Source: Candidatus Aenigmatarchaeota archaeon (GTDB lineage Archaea; Aenigmatarchaeota; Aenigmatarchaeia; Aenigmatarchaeales; JACQIB01). Taken from it: a stretch of DNA of 64,000 bases. This document shows positions 35,923-55,912 of the stretch, piece after piece. The stretch covers positions 7,418 through 71,417 of the forward strand of contig JAZDNN010000024.1 of the NCBI GenBank assembly GCA_043799675.1, written 5' to 3'. The first letter of the stretch is position 1, and every line of letters begins with the position of its first letter. Position numbers and translations under genes: made by a program. The notes beneath the pieces are model-generated. The model had not been told where the DNA came from and searched no databases. It was given only the letters and a program-made list of their open reading frames with translations.

Positions 35923-35977
35923 CAAAAACACGCCCAATACGCCGAAGCTATTTATGTAAACGGCTTTATTCTTGTCC

Positions 35978-38668
35978 ATGAAAAACGGCATTGACAAAGG
36001 AAGGCTGTTTTTGTCTCTCATGGTTATAGCCGGAACGTTTCTGCTGACCGGCGTCGGGGGAGTCAGCGGTTATCTAGTCATGACCGACACCATCCAGCCT
36101 GACAGCGGCGGGAAGGACGCCCATATGATATCGGGTTCCCCAAATTTCAATTACGGTGCGGATACAGGGATGGACATAAGAGGCGACGATAACAGGCGCG
36201 CCCTGATAGAGTTCAACCTTTCGAACGCATCGGCGTACACCAACATGATTTCCGCCACCATGAGGCTTTACGCGACCGCAAAGGGGTCCGCAGACCCGGT
36301 AGTGTACGTACACAGGGTGACCAATCCGTGGGTCGAAGGCAGCGGCACGGGTTCCAAAACGGGTGACGGCGTCACATGGAACAACCGGTCCGGCTCGCAG
36401 GCATGGACTTCGTCGGGCGGCGACTACGATCAGAACATCATTACGAACACCACGGTAACGGGCACGAACGCGTGGTTCAGCTGGGACGTGACCGACCTGG
36501 TACGAGGCTGGGCAAACGGGACGTATTCCAACTACGGCCTGCTCATCAGGACGAACACCACCAGCAGCGCCACGACCACCTTTTCCACCAGCGACAACGC
36601 GAATTCGAGCAGGCGGCCCGTCCTTGAAATAAGGTATTTCATACCCCTCAATATCGGTTTTGTGAGCCCGACCCCCGACAGCGGGAGCACGGTGAACCAG
36701 ACATGGGTGTATGTCAACGTGACCCTGTCCAACGGCAACGCCACTGCGGCAAAACTGGAGTTCAACGGGACAAACTACACGATGAGCAACGCCTCCGCAA
36801 CACCCGGCGTCAGGTGGTTCTACAACAAGACAAACATGGCCAACGGGAACTACACGTACAGGGTCTATGCCAATGACACCGATAACAGGGTTTTCTATAA
36901 TTCCTCGGTCAGGACCGTCACCGTCAATGTCTATACGGATTCCACACCGCCGCAATGGAGCAATGCAAACAGTTCAACACCGGCAACATATTCGACAACT
37001 TCATCATCGTTCAACGTCGCATGGACAGACAATGCAGGCATCTCCATTGCGCTGTTCGAATCGAACTACAGCGGAACGGCAACGAATTACACCATGTCCG
37101 GCTCCGGCACCTACAGCTATAGCGCCGTATTGCCGGCCGGGACGTTCTACTGGAAGAGCTATGCGAACGATACCAGCGGTAACCGGAACAGCACGGGCAT
37201 TCGGTACTTCACAATAGGCAGGGCAGACAACCCCGTCAACCTTTACCTGAACGGAAACAGGAACAGCAATATTACGATCGCTTACGGAACGCAATCCAAC
37301 GCCACGGGAACTGCCCAAGCAGGAACCGCGACCATGTTCAGAAACGATGCTTCAATCGGCAACCCTGAAACGGCCATATTCGGTGTCAACGCTGCCGGAC
37401 ATGCATACAAGGTCAACGCCACCGGAAACGCCAACTACTCAGATAACACCACCGGCATCACATATTACCTGATTATCAGCAAGGCGGCCTCGGCAGCTTC
37501 GTTGACGTTTTCACCGGCCTCGCCGGTCTCATATGGCACCGCGACAACTGCAAGATGTTCTTCAACAAATCCGGAAGGTGCGGCCAGGCTTTACAGGGAC
37601 GGCACGGATGTGACGACCGAGAACAATACCGCAATAATCCTTGGCGCAGGCACTTACGGGTATGTGTGCAACGCCAGTGCAACGCAGAACTACACGGCTG
37701 CAAACAGCAACAGCAGCTACGTTGTGAACAAGGCGGCCACAACTACAGCCTTGTTAATAGACGGGACACAGGCCGACAAGACCGTGACCTACGGCACGCA
37801 AACCAACGTGACGGCAACGACGTCCACCGGATCGTTGACACTTTACAGGAACGGGCTGGTCGTATCCAATCCTGACATCACAAACCTCGGGAACGGAACG
37901 TACAACTACACGGCATACAACTACGGAAATGCCAACTTTTCCGGCAGCTCGGTGACACGATGGGTGACCGTGGGCAGCATGACCTCATCCGTCCTGCTCA
38001 TGCTCGACGGGCAGCAGGCCGACCTGTCCGTGACCGCGGGGGATTCGGTCAACATAACCGCGGTTCTGGTCTCGCCTGCGGCAGGGAACCTGAACCTGGC
38101 CATGGACGGCACGACCATCGATTCCGGCCCGTCGCCGCTGCAGAACATCACACTCTTTGCTAATGCAGGCACGTTTTTCATCAATGCGAGCTATGCGGGC
38201 AACGCCAACTATACCCCGGCCAACGCGGGCCTGTACGTGACGGTGCAGAACTCAAAAGCACCCTCCAAAAAAGCGCTAGTGGTCCAGGCGGGCCCGGACG
38301 CGTGCCTGAGATGCCCGCCCCTGACCGACTGGTCCGCATGCGCTGACGGGAAGCAGACAAGGACCGCCTATGATTGCGCCAGCACCACCGCCTATCGCTG
38401 CATCCCGAGGACCGAGGAAAACGCCTGCACCAATCCTGCGCCCCCGATAGTCCAGGAAAACCGGCCGGCCCAGACCGCGCAAGGGGCAGCCGGAAATGCC
38501 AACAATCCGGCGGGCGGGACCGCCCCGCTGGCCGCAGTGACGGGCGCGGCAGGCGCCATGCCGGGCCTGGAACTGATTGCCGGCCTGGCAATCCTGGCCG
38601 GAGGCATAGGGCTGGTCTGGATGAGGCGTACACGGCATCCGCACAGACCGTCAAAAAGGCCCCGCTGA
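35978..38668 (+). CDS. large surface glycoprotein (S-layer-like) with DNRLRE-type domain and C-terminal TM anchor
   Basis: About 896 aa from ATG 35978.
- N-terminal signal/anchor.
- GDDNRRALIEFNLSN...ATMRLYA, a DNRLRE/disaggregatase-like domain.
- Dozens of N-x-S/T sequons in repeated Ig-like segments.
- One Cys-rich TDWSAC..GKQTRT module.
- C-terminal PGLELIAGLAILAGGIGLVWMRRTRH anchor. Confidence 0.7.
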   Translation: MKNGIDKGRLFLSLMVIAGTFLLTGVGGVSGYLVMTDTIQPDSGGKDAHMISGSPNFNYGADTGMDIRGDDNRRALIEFNLSNASAYTNMISATMRLYATAKGSADPVVYVHRVTNPWVEGSGTGSKTGDGVTWNNRSGSQAWTSSGGDYDQNIITNTTVTGTNAWFSWDVTDLVRGWANGTYSNYGLLIRTNTTSSATTTFSTSDNANSSRRPVLEIRYFIPLNIGFVSPTPDSGSTVNQTWVYVNVTLSNGNATAAKLEFNGTNYTMSNASATPGVRWFYNKTNMANGNYTYRVYANDTDNRVFYNSSVRTVTVNVYTDSTPPQWSNANSSTPATYSTTSSSFNVAWTDNAGISIALFESNYSGTATNYTMSGSGTYSYSAVLPAGTFYWKSYANDTSGNRNSTGIRYFTIGRADNPVNLYLNGNRNSNITIAYGTQSNATGTAQAGTATMFRNDASIGNPETAIFGVNAAGHAYKVNATGNANYSDNTTGITYYLIISKAASAASLTFSPASPVSYGTATTARCSSTNPEGAARLYRDGTDVTTENNTAIILGAGTYGYVCNASATQNYTAANSNSSYVVNKAATTTALLIDGTQADKTVTYGTQTNVTATTSTGSLTLYRNGLVVSNPDITNLGNGTYNYTAYNYGNANFSGSSVTRWVTVGSMTSSVLLMLDGQQADLSVTAGDSVNITAVLVSPAAGNLNLAMDGTTIDSGPSPLQNITLFANAGTFFINASYAGNANYTPANAGLYVTVQNSKAPSKKALVVQAGPDACLRCPPLTDWSACADGKQTRTAYDCASTTAYRCIPRTEENACTNPAPPIVQENRPAQTAQGAAGNANNPAGGTAPLAAVTGAAGAMPGLELIAGLAILAGGIGLVWMRRTRHPHRPSKRPR

Positions 38669-48362: not shown

Positions 48363-49196
48363 TTAGCTGCGTATTCCGCGGATTGTCCCTGTCGTGAACA
48401 CATTGTTGCCCTGGTCGACGTAATCTATCCGCACCGACACGCTGTACGGGTCCCCTGCGTTGCCGTTATTTCCCCGGCCGACATACCATGCGCTGTAATC
48501 GGGTTCCAGAGTTGGCGCGTTGATGTTGCTCAATAACGTTCCGTTCAGGGATACCAAGGCAATAGTTATAGCGTAATTGAAATGGGAATTCAGCAGGAGC
48601 ATCCTGAAAGTGCCGTTATGCGAGTAATCTGCATCGATCACGTCTATGCTGCCGAAATCGGATATCATCTTCGGCGTGCATGCCTGCGATTCCTGCGGTT
48701 TTGTATTATTCAGACCGCACGAAGCGGCATCAACACACGTACGCGTCTGCATCGCATTGGCGCCGCAAACCGACCACGCGCTGCACTGCCATACCGGGGC
48801 GCACGTGCATGCATCGCTTTCGGATGGCTTGCCTACGGTCGTCCCGCAGTGGTTCGAATCGCTGCACGTCCTTGTCTGGGTTCCCCCGACGCACAGGGAC
48901 CACGCACCGCAATACCAGTTCGGCGTACAATGGGTCACCTGCGCACAGCCGTTGGTTTCCTCCGGCCTGCCCGTGTTCGTACCGCAGGAGTTCTCATCAA
49001 CGCACGTCCTGGTCTGGACTCCGGAGACCGAGCATGCGCTCCATGCGCCGCACTGCCAGTCCGGCGTGCATACAGCTGGTGTCGGTTCGGGTTCAATCGG
49101 CCTTACAATAAACTGCATGACGAATACCAACGCAAGCGCGATGAGCATCAGGGACAATATCAGGATGACGGCGTTTTTGCTTCCGAATTTCAGCAC
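48363..49196 (-). CDS. membrane-anchored protein with three TSP1-like cysteine repeats (tandem paralog 1)
   Basis: 277 aa. An N-terminal TM anchor is followed by three copies of C-T-P-x-W-x-C-G-A-W-S-x-C-x3-G-x-Q-T-R-T-C-x-D-x-N-x-C-G-x5-P-x-E-x3-C and a beta-rich C-terminal domain. Confidence 0.6.
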   Translation of the reverse strand: MLKFGSKNAVILILSLMLIALALVFVMQFIVRPIEPEPTPAVCTPDWQCGAWSACSVSGVQTRTCVDENSCGTNTGRPEETNGCAQVTHCTPNWYCGAWSLCVGGTQTRTCSDSNHCGTTVGKPSESDACTCAPVWQCSAWSVCGANAMQTRTCVDAASCGLNNTKPQESQACTPKMISDFGSIDVIDADYSHNGTFRMLLLNSHFNYAITIALVSLNGTLLSNINAPTLEPDYSAWYVGRGNNGNAGDPYSVSVRIDYVDQGNNVFTTGTIRGIRS

Positions 49197-49260
49197 AACT
49201 GAAATGGTGATTATCGCTTAATAAAGAAAAATTTCGGCTTTGCTATCTGATTGCAGGCGC

Positions 49261-50127
49261 TTAGCTGCGCTCTCCGGAAACCGTTCCGGTAACTGAAAAC
49301 CCGTTACTGCCGCTATCCAAGTATGTCATCGTTACAGCGAGGGTATATGGATCTCCAACGTGGCCATTCACTCCCATGGTATTTGTGCCTGTCAGCCATA
49401 CCCTTTCCAGAGGGAATAAGTTCATGGGCACGTTCATGGATGGTATTTGTAAACCGTTGACGCTTACAGACGTAATGCTGATGGTATCGCCAACCCTGTC
49501 CTCCACCCACAATTTTAACGTACCATTTGCAGCGTAATCGACATCCAGCACACCTATGTTCGTGAAGCCGCTGATTGTCTTGGGAGTGCAGGTCTGTGAT
49601 TCCTGCGGTTTGCTTGTCGTTGTCCCGCAAGAATTCGTGTCAATGCATGTTCGCATCCGCGTTCCGCCGGCACCGCACGCGGACCATGCATCGCATTGCC
49701 AGTTAGGAGTACATGTACATGGTTGTGTTTCCAAAGGCCTGTCGCTAAACAGATTGCATCTGTTTGCATCCGTGCATACCCTGCTCTGATTTCCCGAATT
49801 ACTGCAATTGGTCCATGCACTGCACTGCCAGTCAGGCACGCAGGGTGGCGTGCAGAACTGGGTTTCAACAGGCTTGTTATAATTCACGCTGCAGGAATTC
49901 GCATCTATGCATGTCCTTGTCTGCGTTCCTGAAGCGGAGCATGCATTCCACGCCCCGCACTGCCAATCAGGCGTGCATACTGGGGGCATCAGAGGCCCAC
50001 TTGGCTTAATCAGGGATTGCACAATATACAACGATGCAAGCGCAACGATTATTACAGCCAGAACCAAGATAATGACGTTTTTCTTTTCGGATTTAGGCAC
50101 ACCTATTTTCTTTTCTGACTTAGGCAC
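49261..50127 (-). CDS. membrane-anchored protein with three TSP1-like cysteine repeats (tandem paralog 2)
   Basis: 288 aa with the same architecture as 48363..49196. The N-terminal PKSEKK is duplicated. Confidence 0.6.
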   Translation of the reverse strand: MPKSEKKIGVPKSEKKNVIILVLAVIIVALASLYIVQSLIKPSGPLMPPVCTPDWQCGAWNACSASGTQTRTCIDANSCSVNYNKPVETQFCTPPCVPDWQCSAWTNCSNSGNQSRVCTDANRCNLFSDRPLETQPCTCTPNWQCDAWSACGAGGTRMRTCIDTNSCGTTTSKPQESQTCTPKTISGFTNIGVLDVDYAANGTLKLWVEDRVGDTISITSVSVNGLQIPSMNVPMNLFPLERVWLTGTNTMGVNGHVGDPYTLAVTMTYLDSGSNGFSVTGTVSGERS

Positions 50128-54436: not shown

Positions 54437-55183
54437 CTATTTTGAGGTCTTAACCGCTTTTTTTGCGGCGCAGACCCCGAGGTCATGCCTGAGCGAGGGC
54501 CCGCCCGCATCCGCATCGAAGCACCCCCCGTCGGAGTGCCAAGTCGACCTGACGGAAGCCACTTCAACCGGGATTAAGGCTTCTGTTTCGATTTCTACTA
54601 TATCCAGTTTGTTGTCTTTCATCCTGTAAGAAGCCGCTTTCTGTTTGGCCAGCTTTTGGATGACCTCAAGATTATGATTCCAGTAATCGTCCATCGTTGC
54701 CTTGTATTCCTTGTCGGAATTCATCAGTTCAGCCGACTCCTGTGCCTTGAAGTGTCTTACTCCAAAGTCCAGCTTGAACTCCTCGGGTATTCTCTGATAG
54801 ACCAGTTCCTGGATTATCCTGTCCGCATTGGCGATGAACCCTTTGCGTTTATAGTCCCTGAACTTTCCTGCGTCCCCTTTGGCCATCAGGAGCGCATAGC
54901 CTTTCTTTTCAAGGTCCTTTTCCAGCCTCTTTCCGTCAATTATGGCCAATATTTCATCGACCTCTCCCAACCTTTCTTTTACAGAAAAATCATCATCAAA
55001 TATTACAGAGCCATTGTAAGCGGCCAGCTTCGAATCATACGCGCCTGCTGCACGCAGATAATCGAGAACACAGCCTTCAACAGTTACAGGCACGGCTTTT
55101 CCCGTGAACCTGAATTCCCCGTCGATAATCCTCACTTCAGGCTCGGGCATCACGACCGTTGTTATTTTGCTCATGATAATCAT
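54437..55183 (-). CDS. DGR target protein B (VR near C-terminus)
   Basis: 248 aa. The C-terminal ...SVRSTWHSDGGCFDADAGGPSLRHDLGVCAAKK is encoded by VR-B. The N-terminal 200 aa are unrelated to targets C and D. No signal peptide is seen. Confidence 0.7.
   Translation of the reverse strand: MIIMSKITTVVMPEPEVRIIDGEFRFTGKAVPVTVEGCVLDYLRAAGAYDSKLAAYNGSVIFDDDFSVKERLGEVDEILAIIDGKRLEKDLEKKGYALLMAKGDAGKFRDYKRKGFIANADRIIQELVYQRIPEEFKLDFGVRHFKAQESAELMNSDKEYKATMDDYWNHNLEVIQKLAKQKAASYRMKDNKLDIVEIETEALIPVEVASVRSTWHSDGGCFDADAGGPSLRHDLGVCAAKKAVKTSK
54467..54558 (-). repeat. DGR variable repeat VR-B (92 nt)
   Basis: Colinear with the spliced TR. There are 16 differences, 14 at TR adenines and 2 at G positions. 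Confidence 0.75.
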
Positions 55184-55186
55184 TCT

Positions 55187-55912
55187 TCAGAAGTGCTTCT
55201 TCACGACTTCGAGGTCTTTCATCAAAGCGTCATATTTCTTTGACTTTTCCAGAAGCTCCCGGTATTCGCTCTCCGCGACCTCGCACATCTTCGGAAGCTC
55301 GGCCTTCTCGTCCGTTTTAAGGAGGGCGCAGACCCCGTCGTCAGCCCAGTGCGAGGGCCTGCCCGCAGTCGCATTGAAGCACCCCTCGCCCGTGGTCCAA
55401 GCCGACCTGACGGAAGCTTCACCGTTTTCAAACGAGATGCTTCCCCTCCAGACCTTCTTTTTCGGTTTCTTGAACAGCCCGGCATTCACGAGTGTATCAA
55501 AGACGTCCGATTTGCTTATCCCGGCCCTTGTTCTTTTGCCGTCATATTTGAGTTCACCGTTCACTTCCTTCACGACGGGGTCGGCTATTATCTCGCCCTT
55601 CTCAAGGGCGACTTCCCTGTTGTGCAACCAATAATCAATATTCATTTTCTTGAACGACTTGTCCTCGTGCACCAAATCGTAAGAAACCTGCAACGGCAGG
55701 AGCGTGTAGCGCTCGCCGACCTTCTTTGATACTTCCTGACCGAGAAGCGTCATCTGCCTGTGGTCGAGGTTCGCCACGAGGCCATTGCCTTTGTAGTCGT
55801 TGTGCCCTTCGGCAGGACTTCCCTTCCATTTCGGGAAATACACCGTTTCCTTGCCCGTGGGCGGCACTATCTTTCCCGCTATCTCATGGACGATTTCGGC
55901 CTGTGTTACCAT
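55187..55912 (-). CDS. DGR target protein C
   Basis: 241 aa and a paralog of target D (shared ...GKETVYFPKWKGSP.EG.ND...VGERY..LP.Q.SYDLVH.D.SFKKM). VR-C encodes SVRSAWTTGEGCFNATAGRPSHWADDGVCA, followed by a helical tail of about 40 aa. Confidence 0.7.
   Translation of the reverse strand: MVTQAEIVHEIAGKIVPPTGKETVYFPKWKGSPAEGHNDYKGNGLVANLDHRQMTLLGQEVSKKVGERYTLLPLQVSYDLVHEDKSFKKMNIDYWLHNREVALEKGEIIADPVVKEVNGELKYDGKRTRAGISKSDVFDTLVNAGLFKKPKKKVWRGSISFENGEASVRSAWTTGEGCFNATAGRPSHWADDGVCALLKTDEKAELPKMCEVAESEYRELLEKSKKYDALMKDLEVVKKHF
55326..55417 (-). repeat. DGR variable repeat VR-C (92 nt)
   Basis: Colinear with the spliced TR. There are 11 differences, all at TR adenines (11 of 22 A positions changed, 0 of 70 non-A positions). 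Confidence 0.8.

Follow-up and report, generated by a model that had tools for sequence, protein, structure and literature searches.

Two open reading frames on the minus strand, genes A and B, encode proteins of the same architecture within the window, by which we mean the whole 64-kb stretch of DNA analyzed here (Table 1). The preliminary description had proposed two such genes of 277 and 288 aa, each with an N-terminal transmembrane anchor, three cysteine repeats of about 42 aa, and a beta-rich C-terminal domain. That outline stands: both ORFs are found, the hydrophobic N-terminal segment is seen in both proteins and is a helix in the AF2 model of A, profile scanning recovers six repeats, and the C-terminal domain is predicted as beta strands. 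A and B are colinear paralogs with 47% identity (BLASTP E = 3 × 10−90), and A has a full-length homolog, P0001, with 64% identity. The AF2 model of full-length A has a pLDDT of 88.2. A 129-aa NCBI protein labeled Candidatus Aenigmatarchaeota matches the last 104 aa of A, which served as the query, at 100% identity, in agreement with a DPANN origin of the genome. The public annotation of gene A appears to be cut down to 129 aa, and a family model for the repeat would mend it together with many comparable calls. Upstream, the same TATA-like box lies inside a 78-nt block that is 73% identical between A and B, and these boxes may act as promoters. Because the box sits at the same distance before each GTG, the long ORFs are supported, as is independent, leaderless transcription of the two genes.

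Table 1. Positions of genes A and B, their parts, and the related module elsewhere in the window
Feature	Coordinates	Strand	Remarks
898-aa surface protein	35972..38668	+	Carries Disaggr_repeat and Big_3_5 domains
Divergent six-Cys module, aa 778-819	38303..38428	+	Partial profile match DWSACADGKQTRT
Gene A	48363..49196	-	277 aa, GTG start; anchor, three TSR-like modules, C-terminal beta-sandwich
A C-terminal seven-strand beta-sandwich, aa 174-277	48366..48677	-	AF2 prediction
A repeat 3, aa 132-173	48678..48803	-	HMM 58.5 bits; strand pattern alike (AF2)
A repeat 2, aa 90-130	48807..48929	-	HMM 65.9 bits; strand pattern as in the other repeats (AF2)
A repeat 1, aa 43-84	48945..49070	-	
A N-terminal hydrophobic signal-anchor, aa 7-31	49104..49178	-	Sequence and AF2 helix
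TATA-like box of A, TTTATTAA	49218..49225	-	22 nt upstream of GTG
Gene B	49261..50127	-	288 aa, GTG start; architecture as gene A
B C-terminal beta-sandwich, aa 181-288	49264..49587	-	Colinear alignment with the A domain
B repeat 3, aa 139-180	49588..49713	-	HMM 62.3 bits
B repeat 2, aa 96-137	49717..49842	-	HMM 52.5 bits
B repeat 1, aa 51-92	49852..49977	-	HMM 64.4 bits
B N-terminal hydrophobic signal-anchor, aa 17-36	50020..50079	-	Read from sequence
TATA-like box of B, TTTATTAA	50149..50156	-	22 nt upstream of GTG

The anchor helix of A is modeled at residues 7-28, with Lys3 and Lys7 before the hydrophobic segment and a Pro-rich linker, RPIEPEPTPAV, after it, and by the positive-inside rule the protein would be oriented N-in/C-out. 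The anchor of B has a tandemly duplicated PKSEKK motif on its N-terminal side. At the other end of A is a domain of about 100 aa with seven predicted strands spanning residues 177-275 at pLDDT > 90, found also in B, P0001 and, more diverged, P0002. This beta-sandwich is lineage-specific; as a query on its own it has a sole match, a sequence 100% identical over its 104 aa. Foldseek gives it weak Ig-like matches, among them a Sulfolobus pilin, CARDB and MA_4588, the best at E = 3 × 10−3, and a search with the whole A model returned only generic Ig-like sandwiches, all of them for this domain.

Between the two are three repeats per protein, each of 41-42 aa with six cysteines, on linkers of 1-5 residues. 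In a six-frame scan of the window, with a profile built from all retrieved repeats including these six, they score 52-66 bits (domain E = 1 × 10−15 to 1 × 10−19), which is far above chance. The family consensus from the collected repeats, CxxxWxCxxWSxCxxGxQTRTCxDxNxCGTxxxKPxExQxC, agrees with the motif C.P.W.CGAWS.C...G.QTRTC.D.N.CG that had been read from the two genes. The top match in the window after A and B lies in the large surface protein where a related module had been claimed, although that protein is of 898 aa and not 896. The match scores 13.1 bits (domain E = 0.0057) and takes in 18 of the 41 positions of the profile. The segment has six Cys in 42 aa with a spacing unlike that of the A and B repeats, has no first Trp, and directly precedes a low-complexity linker and then a C-terminal TM segment. 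It is the best remaining candidate in the window, but it is no more than a marginal and partial match to the family.

Structure prediction and the disulfide pattern had been put forward as checks. AF2 models a single repeat with a pLDDT of 94.9, and the three repeats of A have an identical strand pattern of A, B (with a bulge) and C. The top Foldseek matches of the module are Unc5A (TMq 0.63) and MIC2 (TMq 0.60), with others to C6, Sema5A TSR3-4, C7 and F-spondin TSR1, where TSR denotes the thrombospondin type-1 repeat. Independently of AF2, co-loss statistics and mean-field DCA were applied to a set of 761 repeats, and these pair the cysteines, counted in order, as C1-C5, C2-C4 and C3-C6. C2 and C4 are both present in 672 repeats, both absent in 88, and one is absent without the other in 1 (p = 8.5 × 10−116), so that, as judged from co-loss, the C2-C4 disulfide is firmly shown. 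Joint loss of C1 and C5 (p = 1.6 × 10−9) makes coevolution supportive of a C1-C5 disulfide. The C3-C6 disulfide is weakly suggested, by elimination and by a coupling between two near-invariant columns; several couplings among highly conserved columns rest on few sequences. Covariation is also found for W10/R20 (p = 6 × 10−13) and for Q18/Q39 (p = 5 × 10−20), the latter with charge-complementary swaps of R, H or K at 18 with E at 39. The top five DCA pairs are Cys7-Cys22, Gln18-Gln39, Cys1-Cys28, Trp10-Arg20 in fourth place, and Cys13-Cys41, and the index sums give antiparallel pairing of the A-B and B-C strands. W5 is conserved at 99%, W10 at 95%, Q18 at 85% and R20 at 92%, and surface-exposed positions such as D24, N26 and K34-P35 are at 68-97%. 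Coevolution points to Trp/Arg stacking and to the S-S pairings given above.

The module can be compared with the TSR, whose fold was defined by Tan et al. in 2002 (PMC2173040). In that fold, Trp and Arg side chains form cation-pi layers; the R3 layer tolerates Gln, which in TSP-1 TSR3 is hydrogen-bonded to a strand-C Gln; a capping disulfide ties the end of strand C to the first Cys past the last Trp; and a top disulfide joins B-C in group 1, or the start of strand A to strand C in group 2 (PMC2173040). The module, in its predicted structure, has the three-stranded, antiparallel, elongated form of the TSR fold. Like group-2 TSRs (F-spondin, TRAP/MIC2 and the N-terminal TSRs of complement C6-C9), it is tandem and probably extracellular, with a Trp on strand A and a Gln at the first "Arg" position. 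It would also share an Arg on strand B stacked on Trp, a partner for that Gln on strand C, a disulfide linking the end of strand C with the Cys at +3 from the last Trp, and, as in group 2, a disulfide that ties the B-C loop or strand C start to where strand A begins. Its strand A reads W5-x-C7-x-x-W10-S-x-C13, where nothing but the final Trp, with the Cys at +3, keeps the TSR register, and its strand B reads Q18-T-R20-T-C22; the W10-R20 covariation is consistent with one Trp/Arg layer pair. The differences are considerable. The module has 41-42 aa against about 55-60 for the TSR, two Trp in W-x-C-x-x-W against WxxWxxW, and one conserved Arg against RxRxR; unlike the TSR, it has a short B-C loop, no CSxTCG, no disulfide from the AB loop to the C-terminus, and a prokaryotic distribution. 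Its C2-C4 disulfide, from strand A to strand B at the W2/R1 layer positions, has no TSR counterpart.

At the level of sequence the comparison with TSP1 did not succeed. Full-length A and B have no TSP1 match in Pfam even at E ≤ 10, and proteins with up to 11 repeats have none either. Among sub-threshold Pfam families, single repeats match TSP1_ADAMTS most often (in 4 of 72 and in 9 of 124 cases), the best at E = 0.0068 and about 13 bits against a gathering cutoff of 23.8, with other sub-threshold matches to TSP1_CCN and PTN_MK_C; the module does not reach the gathering threshold of the TSP_1 clan (PF00090, PF19028, PF19030, PF19035). By hhalign, the repeat profile gives nothing against one TSR, a probability of 23-28% against 10 TSRs (P = 6 × 10−4 to 9 × 10−4), and 12% against a 113-sequence TSR profile (P = 2.4 × 10−3), none significant, with the alignment confined to the WSxC...GxQxR stretch. 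Profiles of 72 and of 124 repeats find no TSR among PDB sequences, only a 24-aa toxin at E = 0.16-0.3 that we take as chance. Because the Pfam hits are below threshold and hhalign is not significant, homology of the module to the TSR is not established. The canonical WxxWxxW, RxRxR and CSxTCG motifs are all missing from the module consensus. C-mannosylation of Trp and O-fucosylation at CSX(S/T)CG are eukaryotic ER modifications. The TSP1 likeness first noticed by eye is therefore supported for the fold only, through AF2 and the coevolution that is independent of it, and not for the sequence.

Two other comparisons help to place the module. Midkine and pleiotrophin (PTN_MK_N, PTN_MK_C) are, like it, small and three-stranded with fewer Trp/Arg layers, and one repeat matches PTN_MK_C at E = 0.033. 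They differ in Cys spacing and in being vertebrate cytokines built of two heparin-binding half-domains rather than long tandem arrays, and the sequence similarity is not significant. The bacterial Ig-like Big domains, CARDB, PKD and bacterial TSP type-3 repeats, which serve as stalks on prokaryotic cell surfaces, are likewise tandem and extracellular and are combined with diverse functional domains and with anchors to membrane or wall, and stalk modules of the Big and CARDB type share proteins with the module studied here. These are beta-sandwiches of 80-100 aa or Ca-binding loops with no disulfide stapling, whereas the module is half as large and owes its fold to Cys, Trp and Arg.

The module is no local curiosity. 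Its profile finds 8,333 cluster representatives at E ≤ 10−3, with up to 17 copies per protein, and scans of A, B and multi-repeat relatives with Pfam and NCBIfam leave the repeat covered by no model; nor does any solved structure cover it. In the literature searched, on thrombospondin or TSP1 in DPANN, Patescibacteria, archaea or prokaryotes and on the motif QTRTC, nothing describes the module, and it would be a previously undescribed large cross-domain family without a Pfam or NCBIfam model. Species genomes yielded 136 confirmed loci in a census that is biased toward the QTRTC[TV]D subtype because its query was 9 close repeats. Distribution in DPANN genomes had been named as a check, and about 56 of the best 80 of these loci are DPANN, with 13 Patescibacteria; some loci bear non-DPANN, non-CPR taxonomic labels, as given, such as Gammaproteobacteria or Methanosarcinales. 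Among the sampled genomes that carry the module, it occurs mainly in DPANN archaea and then in Patescibacteria. A viral origin was rejected, a relative being found on just 1 of 2.9 million viral contigs. A terminal hydrophobic segment is present in 170 of 212 family proteins, successive repeats are joined by linkers of median length 3 aa, and the last repeat is within 60 aa of the C-terminal TM in 25 of the 42 proteins that have one. The Pfam domains that co-occur with the module are of extracellular kinds, PG_binding_1 (12/70) and archaeal S-layer (7/70) along with CARDB, Big, FG-GAP, Kelch and CBM96, and also LTD, LamG, MG2 and dockerin.

Our preferred reading, which we consider somewhat better than an even bet, is that A and B are surface proteins with compact TSR-like modules, combining a semi-rigid rod with a binding element, in a family mostly of DPANN and Patescibacteria. 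As paralogs in an Aenigmatarchaeota (DPANN) archaeon, each transcribed on its own and placed at the cell surface, they would be fixed in the membrane by an N-terminal signal-anchor that is not cleaved, with the N-terminus inside and the C-terminus outside. The extracellular part would begin with the short Pro-rich hinge and continue with the three modules, each presumably a three-stranded antiparallel mini-domain stapled by three disulfides around a core of Trp10 stacked on Arg20 and Gln18 on strand B paired with Gln39 on strand C. The module would then be the TSR layered architecture in a compact form, with Cys7, Trp10 and Cys13 at the W2, W3 and +3 Cys positions of strand A, and, on strand B, Gln18 at R3, Arg20 at R2 and Cys22 at R1. 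Since Cys7 falls at W2 and Cys22 at R1, one Trp/Arg layer pair would be replaced by the C2-C4 disulfide, and the N-terminal Cys would cap the top of the domain in the fashion of group 2. Three modules in a row may form a semi-rigid rod of roughly 10 nm that keeps the C-terminal beta-sandwich head off the membrane, its TSR-like grooves available to glycans or proteins of a partner cell or of the envelope. In the larger, unmodeled family the module may serve as an exchangeable extracellular building block.

An adhesion role for the module, judged from context, is plausible, and the evidence favors a stalk or spacer no less. The spacer role leads to the alternative that survives best, to which we give a real though minority chance, namely that the module is an independently evolved, three-stranded Cys-stapled mini-domain with no more than a likeness to TSRs, which makes an inert, protease-resistant stalk and binds no ligand of its own. 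In its favor are the failed profile-profile comparison and the missing canonical motifs; the short linkers, the arrays of up to 17 copies and the membrane anchor that often adjoins the array are what a spacer would show. Convergence is also easy among small disulfide-rich folds, and even midkine is merely "TSR-like" for Tan et al. (PMC2173040). Against it, five separate core features share the TSR register (W3 and the Cys at +3, positions R3/R2/R1, the Gln-Gln pair between strands B and C, the capping disulfide, and the group-2 top disulfide), TSP1 families are consistently at the top of the sub-threshold Pfam matches, and the conservation at D24, N26 and K34-P35 goes beyond what a pure spacer needs.

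The remaining alternatives fare much worse. That A and B carry a class III signal peptide and polymerize into a surface filament, with the sandwich as the globular pilin domain, is improbable. The N-terminal helix is long and hydrophobic, and the weak Foldseek matches of the sandwich do include the Sulfolobus pilins 6nav_A (E = 0.01) and 8tib_A (E = 0.025), but those matches are generic Ig-like with none at E ≤ 10−3, and about 145 residues of hinge and repeats separate helix and sandwich, unlike in known archaeal pilins. We reject the pilin reading by eye on the signal peptide, as no [KR]-[GA] prepilin peptidase site precedes the hydrophobic stretch in A (MLKFGSKNAVIL...) or in B. Still less probable is a metallothionein-like or MopE-like metal or redox role for the Cys-rich repeats in place of disulfide-stabilized domains, for which one could cite the high Cys content, the many anaerobic host organisms, in which extracellular disulfides might seem unexpected, and a MopE-type metal-binding motif (PF11617) in one relative, P0006. 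That segment lies outside the repeats, His, Asp or Met ligand patterns are absent, the confident model is all-beta with TSR-like topology, and the pairwise co-loss of C2/C4 (88 to 1) and of C1/C5 is a disulfide signature, on which this reading was rejected. Finally, at a distance of 3-6 kb the window has a reverse transcriptase, an RT-16 RNA and two VR-like repeats, and the order RT-RtcB-homolog recurs in a related contig, but that A and B are hypervariable receptors targeted by a neighboring diversity-generating retroelement is hardly credible and was rejected on template-repeat matching, since the candidate for the template repeat finds its counterparts solely in the two small ORFs at 54437..55912 (54529-54558 and 55369-55416) and has no significant match in A or B beyond a 13-nt chance match.

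Returning to A and B as surface proteins with TSR-like modules, what would this mean for the organisms? DPANN archaea and Patescibacteria live attached to host cells, and little is known of the molecules by which they do so. The extracellular proteins specific to these lineages mostly lack annotation (PMC8204110). A building block that occurs in at least 8,333 protein clusters, among them proteins with S-layer, peptidoglycan-binding, lectin-like and Ig-like domains, now has a name, a fold hypothesis, a disulfide map and a profile for searching. Since it is found in archaeal and bacterial radiations of like lifestyle, inter-domain exchange or parallel retention of surface modules is indicated. 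The TSR superfamily has until now been treated as an animal invention that was later handed to apicomplexans (PMC3417536). A bolder proposal, which we hold as tentative and on balance doubtful, is that the module and the eukaryotic TSR are truly homologous and of ancient common origin, the module being a large prokaryotic branch of the superfamily, centered on the two ultra-small episymbiotic radiations, DPANN archaea and Patescibacteria, exchanged between them and used in cell-to-cell attachment. If so, the module could be the evolutionary source of the eukaryotic TSR domain, and its attachment job in these organisms would be the same as that of the TSR in parasite invasion and in the animal matrix. 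Confirmation of the homology would revise the received history of an adhesion domain regarded as classically "animal", and would provide a minimal 41-residue layered Cys-Trp-Arg fold for structural and protein-engineering work.

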